A stretch of 40,631 nucleotides of DNA from positions 1 to 40,631 of the forward strand of contig CAVZJN010000024.1 of NCBI GenBank assembly GCA_963775585.1, read 5' to 3'. The notes below the pieces were generated by a model. It did not search any database, was not told the origin of the DNA, and worked only from the letters and a program-made list of their open reading frames with translations. Numbering within the stretch: the stretch's first letter is position 1; each line of letters begins with the position of its first letter. Source of the stretch: an uncultured Chloroflexia bacterium (GTDB lineage Bacteria; Chloroflexota; Ktedonobacteria; Ktedonobacterales; Ktedonobacteraceae). A program made the position numbers and the translations under genes. Shown one piece after another: positions 3,413 through 8,222 of the stretch.

Positions 3413-4144
3413 GTGAACTTGTCGATAGACATTGCGCGTAAAATACTAGAAGCGAGCAAGCAGCGCGCCAGAGAGCTACGAAGTCCTGTTAGTATCGCTA
3501 TTGTCGATGCTGGCGGGCACCTTGTGCTCTTTGAAAGGATGATGTCACCGTATGGCTGGGCAACGGGCAACATCAGTATCGCGAAGGCTTGCACTGCTGT
3601 GATGTTCAATCAGTCCACAGACGCGGTCGCCCAATGGGGATCGGGCATTCCCGGTTTTGCTTCCAGTATGGCTGAGATGTCACAAGGAAAATTTATTATG
3701 GCAGCTGGTGGTTGGCCCATTCGTATCGGCGGCGCTACTATTGGAGGAATCGGCGTCAGTGGCGGCAACGCCCCTGGGAGAGACGATGAGATTGCACGAG
3801 CAGGACTGGGAGCATTAGAAGCAGCGGCGCCACCAATACCCGCACAGCCAGCGCAATCCGCGCTACCTGTCGGGTCGGCACAGCAACAGCAGCATTCACG
3901 CCCATATATGCAGCCCTCGCCTGTCTATCCATCCATGCCAGCATCCACTATGCCGTCTACTCCATTATCTCCCGGCGGTTTCCAATCACCATCTTTGGTA
4001 CCGTCATCAAATAGTAGCGTTTCAGGTCCAGAGGAAAGCGTCGTCACGCATTATCTCACTCCTGAGCAGCAACAAGAAGACAATTCGATGAATGACCAGG
4101 CAAACGTACAATTGAACGAAAACCGTTCTGGAGGACAACAATGA
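3413..4144 (+). CDS. GlcG/HbpS-like (DUF336, heme-binding-like) protein with S/P/Q-rich disordered C-terminal tail
   Basis: Core IAIVDAGGHLV...AAGGWPIRIGGATIGGIGVSGGNAPGRDDEIARAGL is typical of the DUF336/GlcG fold. Preferred start is GTG 3413, in frame, with AAAAGGAG RBS 8 nt upstream. The ORF track begins at 3296. The 4-nt ATGA overlap with the next gene suggests coupling. Confidence 0.6.
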   Translation: MNLSIDIARKILEASKQRARELRSPVSIAIVDAGGHLVLFERMMSPYGWATGNISIAKACTAVMFNQSTDAVAQWGSGIPGFASSMAEMSQGKFIMAAGGWPIRIGGATIGGIGVSGGNAPGRDDEIARAGLGALEAAAPPIPAQPAQSALPVGSAQQQQHSRPYMQPSPVYPSMPASTMPSTPLSPGGFQSPSLVPSSNSSVSGPEESVVTHYLTPEQQQEDNSMNDQANVQLNENRSGGQQ

Positions 4145-4965
4145 CACAGGATTCTGACCGTCAATCTTCTTCTAGTAACAGGCGCTCCGCCCGTACCAGT
4201 CGGAACCGCCCTGTGCTTGTAACCTCGCAAGAAGGTGAGGGGACTGAAGAGGGGAACAAAGAGGAAGCCTCTCCCACGCTCGAGCAAAGCCAGCCTGAAA
4301 TGGAGGCGGGAAACGCTCCTATTGCACCACCTAAACGCAGGATGCCCGCTTTCTTCTCCACCGTAGGCAAGCGGACACATACAGAGGAGCCGAAAGAAGT
4401 TGATCAAGCGCAGGCCAGGATAGCCCGCGCGACACGCAGCAAAGCATCTCCCGCGAAGACGTCAAGCGAAGACAAAAAAGAACAGCAGCCAGAAGTAAAG
4501 AAGGCGCCTGCCAGCAGAAGCGCCGCGGCAACCAGGCCTGCCAGTCCCTTTAAGACAAAATACCTGATTGGAATAGGCCTTTACCTGCTCGCTGCAAATT
4601 TCATCGGCGCCTTAGAGACGCAGTTCATGCGTGCATACCATCTCGACTTCGTTCTGGGTCAATTTCCTCTCTTCGGCAGCAAAATAGTTATCAGCACGTC
4701 GACGGTGGTGTTCCTTGCGACACTGGTGATCATCCTGGTAGCGCTGGCCCGCTTCGACCTGATTCCCCGCAATTTCAGCGCCATTATGGGCGGAAAACCT
4801 ACTTCCCAGCAAAACAGTCGCGGCAGTAGTTCATCCAGTAAGAACCAGGGGTCAAGCGAAGGCGGCAGGAATATTCCCCCCACGATGAAACAAGGCGTGA
4901 AGGGCGCGAATGACGACCTGTACCAGGAATACCGTGCCAACCAGAAACGCGCGAAAAAGAAGTAA
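4141..4965 (+). CDS. hypothetical membrane protein: K/E/S/R-rich disordered N-terminal half, two predicted TM helices, S/G/K-rich C-terminus
   Basis: ORF only. Hydrophobic stretches YLIGIGLYLLAANFIGAL and IVISTSTVVFLATLVIILVALA. Translationally coupled to the GlcG-like gene. Confidence 0.45.
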   Translation: MTQDSDRQSSSSNRRSARTSRNRPVLVTSQEGEGTEEGNKEEASPTLEQSQPEMEAGNAPIAPPKRRMPAFFSTVGKRTHTEEPKEVDQAQARIARATRSKASPAKTSSEDKKEQQPEVKKAPASRSAAATRPASPFKTKYLIGIGLYLLAANFIGALETQFMRAYHLDFVLGQFPLFGSKIVISTSTVVFLATLVIILVALARFDLIPRNFSAIMGGKPTSQQNSRGSSSSSKNQGSSEGGRNIPPTMKQGVKGANDDLYQEYRANQKRAKKK

Positions 4966-4990
4966 AATAACATGATTTATTATTAAACCC

Positions 4991-5020
4991 TTGACACAAC
5001 AATACAATTCACCCTATAAT
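4991..5020 (+). promoter_or_regulatory. consensus sigma70-type promoter TTGACA-N18-TATAAT
   Basis: TTGACA at 4991-4996 and TATAAT at 5015-5020, both exact hexamers with an 18-nt spacer. A 5' hairpin GACAACG/CGTTGTC lies just downstream at about 5030-5050. Confidence 0.5.
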
Positions 5021-5061
5021 CAAAACAGACAACGAAAACAGCCGTTGTCAAAAAAAATTGG

Positions 5062-5145
5062 ATGAATCGAATGCTCAGCGACCGTACGATCATACACGCA
5101 AACACTCAATACGGTTTTTACTATTGGTTTAGCCCTCCAGCATGA
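5062..5145 (+). CDS. candidate attenuator leader peptide MNRMLSDRTIIHANTQYGFYYWFSPPA (aromatic codon run)
   Basis: 27-codon ORF between the promoter and the terminator. Codons 17-23 (5110-5130) are Tyr-Gly-Phe-Tyr-Tyr-Trp-Phe. Stop TGA 5143-5145 lies inside a segment, CCAGCATG 5137-5144, complementary to CATGCTGG 5183-5190. Confidence 0.5.
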   Translation: MNRMLSDRTIIHANTQYGFYYWFSPPA

Positions 5146-5194
5146 TGGTGGGCCCTTTGGGCTGAGCAAAAACATTCACCAGCATGCTGGACGA

Positions 5195-5222
5195 GCAGAG
5201 GATAATACCTCTGCTTTTTTGT
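5195..5222 (+). terminator. intrinsic terminator / attenuator hairpin GCAGAGG-ATAATA-CCTCTGC followed by TTTTTTGTTTCTTTC
   Basis: 7-bp GC-rich stem followed by a T-run, 64 nt upstream of the DAHP synthase start. A self-complementary CCAGCATGCTGG precedes it at 5179-5190. Confidence 0.55.
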
Positions 5223-5285
5223 TTCTTTCTTTTGGTTCTTATTGTTTCGTAATTCGTAGTAGAAAGACAGAGAGGACTCTTTCAG

Positions 5286-6368
5286 ATGATTATCAGTATT
5301 CGTAGTCAGGCCAGCAGCGAAGAACGCGCCCAGTTACTGGCTTTGCTGGGTCGAGTGAAACAGCACCAACAGCCAATTACGCCCACCTCTATCGATGGGC
5401 GCGAGGTCATCACGCTAGATGGCAGCCATGTAGATGCCCAGGCCAGCGCTCTCCTGCGCCAGCAAGGGGCGGTTGAGCGCGTCATGCATGTGAAGACTCC
5501 CTACAAGCTGGTCAATAGAAGCTTCAAGCCGCAGGGGAGCAGTTTCCTCCTCGGCTCTCTCTCCAGTGGAAAAGCCGTGACCATTGGCCCCGATGCACAT
5601 GGGGTAACCTCGCCAGTGATTATCGCGGGGCCGTGCGCCGTTGAAAACCGCGAGCAGTTGCTTACCACAGCCAGAGCTGTCAAGGCAGCAGGTGCACAGG
5701 TGTTGCGCGGCGGAGCCTTCAAACCGCGTACCTCCCCCTACCAGTTCCAGGGACTTGGTCTCGAAGGGCTGCAGCTACTGGCGGAAGCCCGGGAAATAAC
5801 GGGGCTGCCGGTGATTACTGAAGTGATGGAGCCGGGATTGGTGGAAACGGTGGCAGAATACGCCGACATCTTGCAGATAGGCAGCCGCAATATGCAGAAC
5901 TTCCCTCTCTTATTGGCGGCGGGACGCAACAGTCATAGGCGCCCTGTGATGCTCAAACGTGGGCTGTCAGCCACCATCGACGAGTGGTTGCTGGCCGCGG
6001 AGTACATTGTCTCGACAGGAAATCCCAACGTCATTCTCTGCGAACGAGGCATCCGCGGCTTTGATCCACAGACGCGCAACGTGCTTGATCTCTCCTGTGT
6101 GCCGTTGCTTCACGAATTGACGCACCTCCCCGTGATTGTCGATCCCAGCCATGCCACAGGCCGGCGCGAGCTAGTCCCCACCATGTCACGTGCATCCATC
6201 GCCGCAGGAGCCGATGGCCTCATCCTCGAAGTACATCCCAACCCCGACAGCGCGCTCTGCGATGGCCGCCAATCAATCACCGATGAACAACTGCGCTCCA
6301 TCGTACGCGACGCTCGGCTGATGGCCCAGATGATCAATGGAAAGGCGGAAGTCACGTGTGTAGCCTGA
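5286..6368 (+). CDS. 3-deoxy-7-phosphoheptulonate (DAHP) synthase, class I-beta, with N-terminal ferredoxin-like/ACT regulatory domain
   Basis: [10 protein letters not shown]...[13 protein letters not shown]...QIGSRNMQN...VDPSH motifs of the KDO8PS/DAHPS I-beta family. The about 100-aa N-terminal extension resembles the Thermotoga-type regulatory domain (MIxxxK...PYKLVxRxF). Confidence 0.9.
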
Positions 6369-6569
6369 AATGTAGGGGCCAGGCTTGCCCCAGCCCTGGT
6401 TGACCTAACCCTGTAAAGCTCGCTTTGATAAATATCCACAATCTCATCTCGACTCGTCTGATGTTATATGTTATACTCTTCGTATCTAAGCACCCAGGCG
6501 TGAAGTGATGGCTGTGGTTAGTGGTTACATTGAGAGTGCGACCAGGGGGCTGGATAAGGATTAGACGAG

Positions 6570-7151
6570 GTGATAGAGATGCCAACAAGAGTTATTATCG
6601 CTGACGACGAAACAATTCAGCGAATGGATCTTAAAGATGTACTGACCAAGCAGGGCTATCTTGTAGTAGGCGAAGCGGGCGATGGACTGAGTGCCGTCAA
6701 CCTCGCGCGCGAGTTACGGCCGGACCTGGTCATTATGGATATCAGAATGCCTGATATGGACGGCATCGCTGCCGCCGAGACGCTCACCCAGGAGAAGATT
6801 GCGCCAGTATTGTTGCTCACCGCCTTTGGCGACTTACCGCTAGTTGAACGCGCTAAAGAGGCCGGTGTGGTGAACTATATTGTGAAGCCACTACGAGAGA
6901 GCGAAGTTACTCCTGCTATTGAAGTGGCCCTGGCTCGCTATAATGAATTCCGCGCACTCGAAGAGAAGACGCGTACTCTCAGTGAACAATTGGAGACACG
7001 TAAAATTGTGGAGCGGGCCAAAGGTCTCCTGATGGAAAAGCAGGGGCTGAGCGAGCAGGAAGCCTTCCGTAAGATTCAGAAGGCCAGTATGAACAACCGC
7101 AAATCCATGCGCGAGGTAGCTGAAGCGATCCTGTTGACCAATGAAATGTAA
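6570..7151 (+). CDS. response regulator with receiver and ANTAR RNA-binding domain (AmiR/NasT/PdtaR-like)
   Basis: N-terminal REC domain (IIADDE...D...IMDIRMPDMDG). C-terminal ANTAR (RKIVERAKGLLMEKQGLSEQEAFRKIQKASMNNRKSMREVAEAIL). GAGGTGA RBS. Confidence 0.85.
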   Translation: MIEMPTRVIIADDETIQRMDLKDVLTKQGYLVVGEAGDGLSAVNLARELRPDLVIMDIRMPDMDGIAAAETLTQEKIAPVLLLTAFGDLPLVERAKEAGVVNYIVKPLRESEVTPAIEVALARYNEFRALEEKTRTLSEQLETRKIVERAKGLLMEKQGLSEQEAFRKIQKASMNNRKSMREVAEAILLTNEM

Positions 7152-7157
7152 AAACGA

Positions 7158-7183
7158 CGCGGCAATGAAGCCGCGCTTTTTCT
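7158..7183 (+). terminator. intrinsic terminator CGCGGC-AATGAA-GCCGCG followed by TTTTTCT
   Basis: 6-bp GC stem and T-run immediately after the ANTAR regulator stop at 7151. Confidence 0.6.
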
Positions 7184-7208
7184 ATGACCAGTAAAGATAA
7201 TATAAGTC

Positions 7209-8222
7209 ATGGTATCAGCAACACTTAGCGAGAACGTTGTTGTCATCACCGGTGTTCGTTTTCGTCCTGCCGGACGTATTTATTACTTTGACCCACAGGG
7301 ACAGTCGTATAACACAGGCCAATTTGTAATTGTTGAGACTGTGCGAGGGACAGAAGCCGGACGCGTAGTTATTGCGTCGAAGAAGATGGCTGAGAAGGAC
7401 CTCAGTGATCCGCTCAAGCCGGTATTGCGCCTGGCTACCGAAGACGAATTGCGTTTGATGCTCTCGTTCAAGAGCAAAGAGAAGGAGGCCCTTGTTAAGT
7501 GTGCAGAGCGGGTGACACAACACGCGCTGCCCATGAAGCTGGTAGAGGCCGAATACACCTTTGATGGCAGCCGTCTGACCTTTTATTTTACGGCTGATGA
7601 ACGAGTTGACTTTCGCGCGCTGGTGCGTGACCTGGCGGCGGCCTTTCGTACGCGTATCGAGCTGCGCCAGATCGGGGCACGCGACCAGGCCAAGCTGCAA
7701 GGAGGGCTGGGACCATGCGGTAAAACCCTCTGTTGTAGCTCGTGGATTGCTGACTTTGGCGTTATCTCAATCAAGATGGCGAAGGAGCAGGGTTTACCCC
7801 TGAATCCTGCAAAGATCTCGGGGGTCTGCGGCCGCCTGTTATGTTGTCTCTCCTATGAGAACGACAACTACATCCAGGCGAAGCAATCGATGCCACAGAT
7901 TGGCACGATGCTCAACACGCCCAGCGGCCCTGGGAAAGTGGTCTCGGTCAATGTACCGCAGGAGTCGGTCGAGGTCATGCTGGAGAGCGGCGTCACTATC
8001 CAGATACCGGTAAACCAATCCTCGGGGCCAGTAGCGCAGCTTGTAGAGCAAAAAATCGAGAGCAAGGGTGGCTGCGGGAGTTGTGGTCTCAACAAAGGCG
8101 GAGGCTGCGGGAGTGGGGGGAGTGGCTGCAGTTGTGGCAGCGGAGGAGGTGGTTGCGGCAGCGGGAGTTGTGGTACAAAAAGCGGGAGTTGTAGCACATG
8201 CGGCGTAAAAAGAACCATGTAA
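7209..8222 (+). CDS. PSP1 C-terminal domain protein (RicT/YaaT-like) with Cys/Gly-rich C-terminal tail
   Basis: N-terminus VITGVRFRPAGRIYYFDP...VIVETVRGTEAGRV matches YaaT/RicT. The last about 50 aa are (G/S/C) repeats with 12 Cys. Confidence 0.8.
   Translation: MVSATLSENVVVITGVRFRPAGRIYYFDPQGQSYNTGQFVIVETVRGTEAGRVVIASKKMAEKDLSDPLKPVLRLATEDELRLMLSFKSKEKEALVKCAERVTQHALPMKLVEAEYTFDGSRLTFYFTADERVDFRALVRDLAAAFRTRIELRQIGARDQAKLQGGLGPCGKTLCCSSWIADFGVISIKMAKEQGLPLNPAKISGVCGRLLCCLSYENDNYIQAKQSMPQIGTMLNTPSGPGKVVSVNVPQESVEVMLESGVTIQIPVNQSSGPVAQLVEQKIESKGGCGSCGLNKGGGCGSGGSGCSCGSGGGGCGSGSCGTKSGSCSTCGVKRTM

Follow-up and report, generated by a model that had tools for sequence, protein, structure and literature searches.

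The stretch of DNA considered here, called the window throughout, comprises 40,631 nucleotides (nt) from an uncultured Chloroflexia bacterium of the family Ktedonobacteraceae (contig CAVZJN010000024.1, positions 1 to 40,631). A preliminary description of the locus had spoken of a GC-rich genome, which is not borne out by the GC content of the window, 53.6%. On the forward strand, positions 5286 to 6368 encode a type I-beta 3-deoxy-D-arabino-heptulosonate 7-phosphate (DAHP) synthase, preceded by a Shine-Dalgarno (SD) sequence, GAGAGGA, at 5270-5276. The identity of the gene product, as first given, is confirmed by the Pfam domain DAHP_synth_1 (PF00793, E 4e-78), and its best solved relatives are 1VS1 and 1RZM. 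In front of this gene lies a real and strongly conserved regulatory element, made of a promoter, a short open reading frame (ORF) with a run of aromatic codons, a long hairpin that we call helix P and an intrinsic terminator. Comparison with its relatives suggests that this element is very probably a ribosome-mediated leader-peptide transcription attenuator, which would tie the expression of DAHP synthase to the levels of charged tRNA-Phe, tRNA-Tyr and tRNA-Trp, so that more of this enzyme, the first of the aromatic pathway, would be made whenever aromatic amino acids are scarce.

A consensus scan of positions 4000-7500 returned a single perfect (12/12) promoter match, the TTGACA-N18-TATAAT already reported at 4991-5020, with the -35 hexamer at 4991-4996 and the -10 hexamer at 5015-5020. 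The motif TTGAC(A/T)-N17-18-TATAAT is found at the equivalent position in all 11 Ktedonobacterales loci compared, and transcription is predicted to start near 5027. Right after this point, folding predicts a 5'-proximal stem-loop, GACAACG..CGTTGTC, followed by an A-run (5028-5049); a stem-loop unrelated in sequence occupies the equivalent position, immediately after the predicted start, in 10 of the 11 loci, and may serve in RNA stabilisation.

The leader ORF had been placed at 5062-5145 (27 codons, MNRMLSDRTIIHANTQYGFYYWFSPPA) and credited with a weak SD. Both the ORF and the place of its aromatic run were correct, but the start that is kept among relatives is the in-frame ATG at 5071 (ATGCTCAGC), three codons further downstream, which leaves a leader of 24 codons and a stop (5071-5145, MLSDRTIIHANTQYGFYYWFSPPA). 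The SD-like sequence, GGATG at 5060-5064 (alignment consensus nGGAnnAATAnnATG), is indeed weak and serves the ATG at 5071, with a GGA conserved 7-11 nt 5' of that codon; the ATG at 5062 is itself embedded in GGATG. The putative regulatory codons, Tyr-Gly-Phe-Tyr-Tyr-Trp-Phe, occupy 5110-5130, a place that is aromatic in relatives too, and the leader stop codon, at 5143-5145, lies within CCAGCATG (5137-5144).

In 36 out of 36 Ktedonobacteria-type relatives, the stop is in frame with the conserved ATG although the ORF takes seven different lengths (57-84 nt), and internal stops are absent. In the same set, the codons for Pro, Pro, Ala and Tyr in the leader tail show third-position changes only. 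Substitutions within the run are mostly aromatic-for-aromatic; relatives at large have versions such as FYYWF, FWYWF, YWYWF, FYF, YWF and WYYYYF. The N-terminal half of the ORF is conserved neither in sequence nor in length. These patterns strongly support selection of the leader as a reading frame, and its translation is predicted. The run had originally been judged very unlikely by chance; this argument fails, as the six frames of the window hold 11 seven-residue stretches with at least five aromatics, against 1.9 in shuffles. It is therefore conservation, not rarity, that shows the run to be real, aromatic-rich stretches being common in this window.

The distribution of the element was followed in two surveys, in which the DAHP synthase protein was scanned against one genome per species and metagenomes were scanned with the terminator motif, the latter returning 120 loci. 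The enzyme places the window among the Ktedonobacterales, with a best identity of 74% in genomes and of 82-84% in metagenome contigs. Together, the surveys gave about 120 distinct leaders with aromatic runs, while a few terminator-motif matches proved to be unrelated plain terminators behind pilin and other genes. The preliminary description had staked its proposal on whether relatives keep the ORF together with its aromatic codons, and more than 100 sequences do so. The full set of promoter, leader ORF, long hairpin and terminator stands before DAHP synthase in 27 Chloroflexota genomes and in over 100 contigs from metagenomes. In Ktedonobacterales (loci L001-L014), promoter, ORF, hairpin and terminator are all preserved upstream of DAHP synthase, in the order promoter, ATGCTCAGC, a variable stretch, the aromatic run up to ..FSPPA-stop, the block TTTAGCCCTCCAGCATGATGGTGGGCCCTTTGGGCTGAGCAAAAA, CCACCAGCATGCTGG and the terminator. 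Limnocylindria-type and other Chloroflexota carry a compact leader of 11 codons, for example MRPTFYFRCPA, before DAHP synthase, and nearly all metagenome loci with enough downstream DNA encode this enzyme. Carriers in culture include Ktedonobacter racemifer DSM 44963 (locus L009, NZ_ADVG01000002.1, near 2.272 Mb), Dictyobacter kobayashii, D. arantiisoli and Thermosporothrix hazakensis, which makes the model directly testable.

Some leaders precede other genes of the aromatic pathway. One locus (L100, 2862-3011) has a Ktedonobacteria-type leader with FYYF, without Trp, before a gene for an AroH-type chorismate mutase, an enzyme that serves Phe and Tyr only. In L131, L108, L145 and others, the leader stands before a prephenate dehydrogenase gene, sometimes followed by that for DAHP synthase, and in L096 it precedes an AroG-like DAHP synthase. 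The codon content of the leader thus tracks the regulated gene, as predicted for a sensor of aromatic tRNA charging, to the point that it predicts which aromatic-pathway enzyme is controlled. The idea first put forward from the window, that translation of the leader would sense the aromatic supply and govern the terminator, has in this way gained strong comparative support.

Aromatic leaders were also observed outside the phylum. They stand before I-beta DAHP synthase in Acidobacteriota (L035-L038, L042, L045, L059, L063, L065 and L067) and in one Planctomycetota genome (L075), with runs such as FSFRYWF, SYSFRFWRF and FFFFGYWF and a different conserved terminator, CCCACTC..GAGTGGG. On the minus strand of L114 (motif at 807-837), an ORF with Thr-Thr-Thr (..NETTTAS..) lies before an aspartate-semialdehyde dehydrogenase gene; its terminator stem is likewise GCAGAGG/CCTCTGC, the outer helix stops right at the terminator, and the locus may be a threonine attenuator of like architecture. 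In L064 (Alicyclobacillaceae), two motifs that resemble T-boxes, AGGGTGGCACCGCG and AAGGGTGGTACCGCG, occur about 150-330 nt upstream of DAHP synthase, both with a terminator behind them, suggesting that Firmicutes relatives may use tRNA-sensing RNAs for this gene.

The RNA helices of the leader were assessed on an alignment (A1) of 38 Ktedonobacteria-type leaders, which supports three of them. Helix P pairs 5136-5151 (TCCAGCATG-A-TGGTGG, a strand that includes the leader stop) with 5176-5191 (TCACCA-G-CATGCTGGA), and ends 1 nt short of the terminator. The complementarity noticed early on between CCAGCATG and CATGCTGG (5183-5190) is real and forms the base of this covarying 15-bp helix, in which 99.1% of cells are paired and compensatory changes occur: the basal pair is seen as U-A, C-G, G-C and U-G, and one inner pair as A-U and U-A. 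Over all lineages, the outer ten pairs appear in 39 distinct complementary versions (for example UCCAGCAUG/CAUGCUGGA, CCCGGCAUGA/UCGUGCCGGG, CGGCUUGGGC/GCCCAAGCCG and GUCGCCGUGG/CCGCGGCGGC), and the interior of P has no sequence common between clades. The P domain of the window folds at -27.6 kcal/mol, the median over homologs being -32.4 kcal/mol, and RNAalifold recovered both P and the terminator from 57 Limnocylindria-type leaders.

Within the loop of P, a small inner hairpin, GCCC-TTT-GGGC (5152-5162), shows covariation in two of its four pairs (versions GCCT/AGGC, GCCA/TGGC and GCTC/GAGC). In the third helix, A:A', the region of the start codon (5072-5079) pairs with GCTGAGCA at 5161-5168, with 98.3% of cells paired and two compensatory pairs among the 38 sequences. 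As A:A' crosses P, the two must be alternatives or form a pseudoknot, and folding of ribosome-free RNA gives them nearly equal energies, -65.0 kcal/mol for the state with A:A' and -63.2 kcal/mol for that with P. Limnocylindria-type leaders are without A:A'. We can only speculate that this helix limits translation to a pioneer ribosome, or that it sets the default state.

A possible second mini-ORF, MMVGPLG* (5142-5165), begins inside P, its ATG overlapping the leader stop as ATGA. This overlap is present in 37 of 38 Ktedonobacteria-type and in 59 of 59 Limnocylindria-type leaders (alignments A1 and A2); of these, 32/37 and 58/59, respectively, have a second frame that ends within 2-7 codons. 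In the Limnocylindria-type leaders, the mini-ORF stop (UAG in 30, UGA in 25, UAA in 3) falls in the loop of the inner hairpin, where a single sequence has UGG. The ATGA mini-ORF may permit termination and re-initiation that hold helix P open. In other lineages, the leader ORF itself runs on for 30-40 nt into P.

The terminator, recovered by a terminator scan and by folding, consists of a stem-loop at 5193-5216 (GAGCAGAGG-ATAATA-CCTCTGCTT) and a U-tract, TTTTTTGTTT, at 5215-5224. Its core, GCAGAGG/CCTCTGC, followed by T6-G-T3, is present just where it had been described, and the terminator lies 64 nt 5' of the DAHP synthase start. The hairpin has a stability of -14.0 kcal/mol in the window and a median of -13.6 kcal/mol in homologs (range -12.2 to -17.7), and a terminator between leader ORF and structural gene is kept in all of them. 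The stem GCAGAGG..CCTCTGC with its T-rich tail is identical in 27 genome loci, those of Limnocylindria-type and other Chloroflexota included, and the whole of GCAGAGG..CCTCTGC-TTTTTTGTTT is invariant over clades whose other helices have diverged fully. An identical stem also follows unrelated pilin genes (L090, L091, L169 and L191); the terminator sequence is therefore not specific to attenuators.

We then consider how translation of the leader could control this terminator. According to the preliminary description, the locus has all the parts of a classical attenuator, with CCAGCATG:CATGCTGG as the competing pairing. However, this pairing contests no nucleotide with the terminator: P and the terminator hairpin have no nucleotide in common, C5192 alone lying between them. 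The window, three Limnocylindria-type leaders, 11 divergent lineages and then 122 homologs in all were subjected to constrained equilibrium folding, in which a ribosome mask was placed in turn on every aromatic codon and on the stop, or was left out. The terminator probability (p) was 0.999 in every ribosome state of the window, the Limnocylindria-type leaders and the divergent lineages behaved alike, and folding with and without the ribosome footprint, the check originally recommended, gave no mutually exclusive conformers. Over the 122 homologs, the lowest p was 0.92 among the stalled states and 0.90 for a ribosome at the stop, so that no overlapping exclusion between terminator and antiterminator was found by thermodynamic folding with ribosome masks in the window or in 121 homologs. 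The same test does detect a switch in the acidobacterial locus L045, used as a positive control, where p falls from 0.84 with the ribosome at the stop to 0.01-0.13 with the ribosome on the last aromatic codons.

Some pairings other than P were tried and set aside. In the Limnocylindria-type leaders L118, L129 and L017, the ribosome-free RNA gave p values down to 0.03-0.38, the Phe-Tyr-Phe codons (CUUCUACUUU) pairing with the 5' arm of the terminator (AAGCAGAGG). This pairing is limited to the ribosome-free RNA of a few sequences and is unconserved, and it was rejected as a switch because a stalled ribosome would cover it, which makes its logic wrong. A pairing of the A-rich linker with the U-tract, and a purine tract that would lengthen the terminator, were inconsistent between clades when compared by eye.

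A classical attenuator could still operate if an overlapping antiterminator formed kinetically and was missed by equilibrium folding, one candidate being the leader segment CCCUCCAGC (5133-5141) paired with GCAGAGG, the 5' arm of the terminator. The 5' strand of P in Ktedonobacteria-type leaders does resemble the 3' arm of the terminator, with an intermolecular estimate of -8.2 kcal/mol for its pairing with the 5' arm, L045 has a canonical overlapping antiterminator, and both terminator arms are invariant in sequence, as if each had a second partner. Nevertheless, this pairing would have to outcompete P at -27.6 kcal/mol, whose partner strand is transcribed earlier, and it is missing from other clades, among them Limnocylindria-type leaders with an identical terminator; it was rejected as the main switch. 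In addition, the terminator keeps its high probability in all stalled states of the 122 homologs, and lineages with unrelated terminator stems retain a P that abuts the terminator. We consider this explanation unlikely, although it is the strongest of the alternatives. As an overlapping antiterminator was looked for by thermodynamic folding and not found, the element appears to work like a leader-peptide attenuator while departing from the classical design.

Even where lineages share no sequence, the geometry of the leader is the same. Between the end of the aromatic run and the first pair of P lie 6-8 nt, so that a ribosome whose A site holds an aromatic codon would abut P and leave it unopened; P closes from the first nucleotide that would be uncovered by a ribosome sitting on the last aromatic codon. 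The stop codon lies within P, in its 5' strand or its interior, in all 122 homologs, and finishing the leader consequently requires that P be unzipped. P and the terminator stand 1 nt apart in the window and 0-4 nt apart in 86 of the 122 homologs, compared to 15% of shuffled controls. Other Chloroflexota (L058, L060 and L070) have other terminator stems in the same layout, with P adjoining the terminator.

A mechanism with this anatomy, the "tug-of-war," has been reported in riboswitches: a stable structure less than 5 nt upstream of a terminator, without any overlap, suppresses termination (Bushhouse, Fu, Lucks 2026, doi 10.64898/2026.06.17.733018). The effect needs a short spacer and is largest with weaker terminators, its authors explain it by a steric contest for the exit channel of the RNA polymerase, and this design is reported for about 10% of natural ZTP riboswitches; leader peptides are unmentioned in that paper (doi 10.64898/2026.06.17.733018). 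As the leader combines this anatomy with a ribosome that may act as the toggle, we propose that it is a ribosome-gated tug-of-war attenuator.

In this model, the sigma-70-type promoter at 4991-5020 would drive a leader RNA of about 195 nt. When aromatic aminoacyl-tRNA is ample, the ribosome would enter P in order to reach the stop and would hold it open, perhaps for longer through re-initiation at the ATGA mini-ORF or through the extended ORF; with P open, the moderately weak terminator (-14 kcal/mol) would fold and transcription would end. When aromatic tRNA is uncharged, the ribosome would stall 6-8 nt before P, which would remain closed, and this stable helix at the 5' shoulder of the terminator would block completion of the terminator hairpin in the RNA polymerase exit channel, resulting in read-through. 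In untranslated RNA, A:A' would be the alternative to P and would sequester the leader start codon. The direction of the switch is set by physiological logic, by which a stalled ribosome with P closed must give read-through and a ribosome that has reached the stop, with P open, must give termination. An attenuator before DAHP synthase together with this switch is likely to be the best explanation overall. Taken by itself, a switch consisting of a steric helix without sequence overlap with the terminator has, in our opinion, about an even chance of being correct, or slightly less, and we advance still more tentatively the existence of a natural family of ribosome-gated "tug-of-war" attenuators, widespread in Chloroflexota, in which translation, and not a ligand, would drive steric antitermination.

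Several points weigh against this proposal. Its support comes wholly from sequence comparison and thermodynamic equilibrium folding. In the riboswitch study, plain hairpins placed upstream clearly affected only the weakest terminator tested, and the terminators of natural tug-of-war riboswitches were mostly stronger than -15 kcal/mol (doi 10.64898/2026.06.17.733018). Were closed P enough to block termination, read-through would be expected of untranslated leaders unless A:A' prevents it, and the Limnocylindria-type leaders have no A:A'. Even with P open, small local hairpins of its 3' strand are also near the terminator. The spacer is 6-7 nt in the other 36 of the 122 leaders when the last Phe codon is in the A site; in the 36 that have the spacer CGAACGAA, the basal extension of P draws on this codon, so that 6 nt are left once it is in the A site. 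Finally, the stem GCAGAGG/CCTCTGC is invariant across clades, though a steric model needs no particular sequence.

The leader could also be read as encoding an arrest peptide of the TnaC kind, sensing free aromatics, whose stall at the UGA inside P would hold P open and lead to termination. The stop is UGA in all 97 compact leaders and the C-terminal tail is kept as ..WFSPPA* or ..FYFRCPA*, Pro-Ala-stop being nearly universal, as such a peptide might require. On the other hand, the order and composition of the run vary freely (FYYWF, FWYWF, FYF, YWF, WYYYYF), which suits the counting of codons better, and the Trp codon is missing exactly where Trp is no product of the pathway. In L158, where the last residue has changed from Ala to Thr, the opposite strand of P has changed in compensation, and conservation of the tail is thus explained by RNA pairing rather than by the peptide. 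Moreover, lineages with an extended ORF end elsewhere, with UAA. An arrest peptide is for these reasons improbable.

We regard as very unlikely that the leader is an untranslated structured RNA, acting for instance as a riboswitch, sensing tRNA in the manner of a T-box or binding a protein, in which the ORF would be incidental. The conserved and covarying P, A:A' and inner hairpin would agree with it, and the UGGUGG:CCACCA pairing recalls the recognition of the acceptor end by T-boxes. However, Rfam returned no match at gathering score over the whole window and, between 4900 and 5400, only noise at E <= 10 (CRISPR-DR65 and MicX, both well under the threshold), while the T-box covariance model gave no match at E <= 10 in 4900-5400; a T-box and the known leader families were rejected on this basis. 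The frame is kept over seven lengths with synonymous variation, clades differ in sequence throughout the interior of P, and Limnocylindria-type leaders are without UGGUGG. Equally remote is a constitutive leaky terminator, with the ORF as an unrelated micropeptide or the leader as a small RNA acting in trans, since, even if the same stem stands behind unrelated genes such as pilin (L090, L091, L169, L191), the ORF is tied to DAHP synthase, chorismate mutase and prephenate dehydrogenase genes across phyla, its N-terminal half is unconserved, and many loci are too tight for a second promoter (the gap between terminator and gene is 31 nt in L004).

Regarding the gene itself, an N-terminal allosteric domain had been attributed to the DAHP synthase. 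Such a regulatory domain is plausible at most: the Pfam domain spans residues 106-338, the alignment with the Thermotoga enzyme 1RZM starts at residue 60, and residues 1-60 found no match in Pfam or in the structure comparison. The gene 3' of DAHP synthase (6570-7151), whose product is a response regulator with an output domain of the RNA-binding ANTAR type, is followed by a bidirectional terminator-like hairpin at 7158-7175. On the other side, an upstream ORF (4141-4965) of 274 amino acids, rich in Ser, Lys, Glu and Pro and with one hydrophobic stretch, ends 26 nt before the leader promoter; Pfam gave no match for it, and the interval up to the promoter holds no terminator that was detected.

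In conclusion, the leaders form a large conserved family of very probable amino-acid attenuators, with more than 100 distinct members, in a phylum seemingly without described ones; Ktedonobacteria, Limnocylindria and other Chloroflexota all carry it, and relatives exist in Acidobacteriota and Planctomycetota. Textbook attenuators are defined by an overlapping antiterminator, which this architecture lacks, and its layout matches a steric antitermination that was shown only in 2026, for riboswitches. If the model is correct, this would be the first case in which translation, and not a ligand, drives steric antitermination without sequence overlap, the position of the ribosome would be a second natural input to such a mechanism, and searches for attenuators or riboswitches that demand mutually exclusive helices would miss a whole class.

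In the trpL and pheL (pheA) leaders of E. coli (summarised in PMC11802643), the stall codons lie in region 1, and region 3 belongs both to the antiterminator (2:3) and to the terminator (3:4). The element described here resembles them in its short leader, in the run of codons for the end product and in the terminator before the structural gene, as well as in the presumed use of ribosome position as the switch. It differs in that the stall codons lie just 5' of P, P includes no terminator nucleotides, the terminator folds in every modelled ribosome state, and Phe, Tyr and Trp codons are mixed in one leader. The acidobacterial L045 (Bryobacterales) is similar in having an aromatic leader (..SYSFRFWRF..) and a terminator before an orthologous I-beta DAHP synthase, but there a canonical overlapping antiterminator brings the terminator p from 0.84 to 0.01.

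The preliminary description had presented leader-peptide attenuation of DAHP synthase as not known to be described in a GC-rich Chloroflexi-like genome. In the literature searched, no aromatic leader was found for Chloroflexota, Ktedonobacteria or Acidobacteria, but leader control of DAHP synthase has been established by experiment in Corynebacterium glutamicum and predicted in Acholeplasma, and the novelty accordingly holds for the phylum only. In C. glutamicum, the aroR leader, with a Phe-Tyr-Phe run, lies upstream of aroF, which encodes DAHP synthase (Mentz 2013, PMC4046766; PMC11802643), and aroF expression goes up under Phe limitation, according to the account of that work given in a later paper (Neshat 2014, via PMC11802643). 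Compared by this run alone, aroR has the same aromatic triplet before DAHP synthase as the Limnocylindria-type leaders, while it belongs to another phylum and the leader of the window also has Trp. In Acholeplasma, the uORFC-13-1 motif upstream of aroF is predicted to exert leader-peptide control, with 24 examples (Brewer et al. 2021, PMC8632094); by its description, this motif of Mollicutes relies on Phe only (a U-run), whereas Phe, Tyr and Trp are all present in the leader of the window. Finally, like the tug-of-war riboswitches, the leader has a stable helix that adjoins the terminator without overlap, across a spacer of 1 nt in the window; unlike them, in which the structure is a ligand-stabilised aptamer (ZTP), it would use a plain long hairpin toggled by the ribosome.

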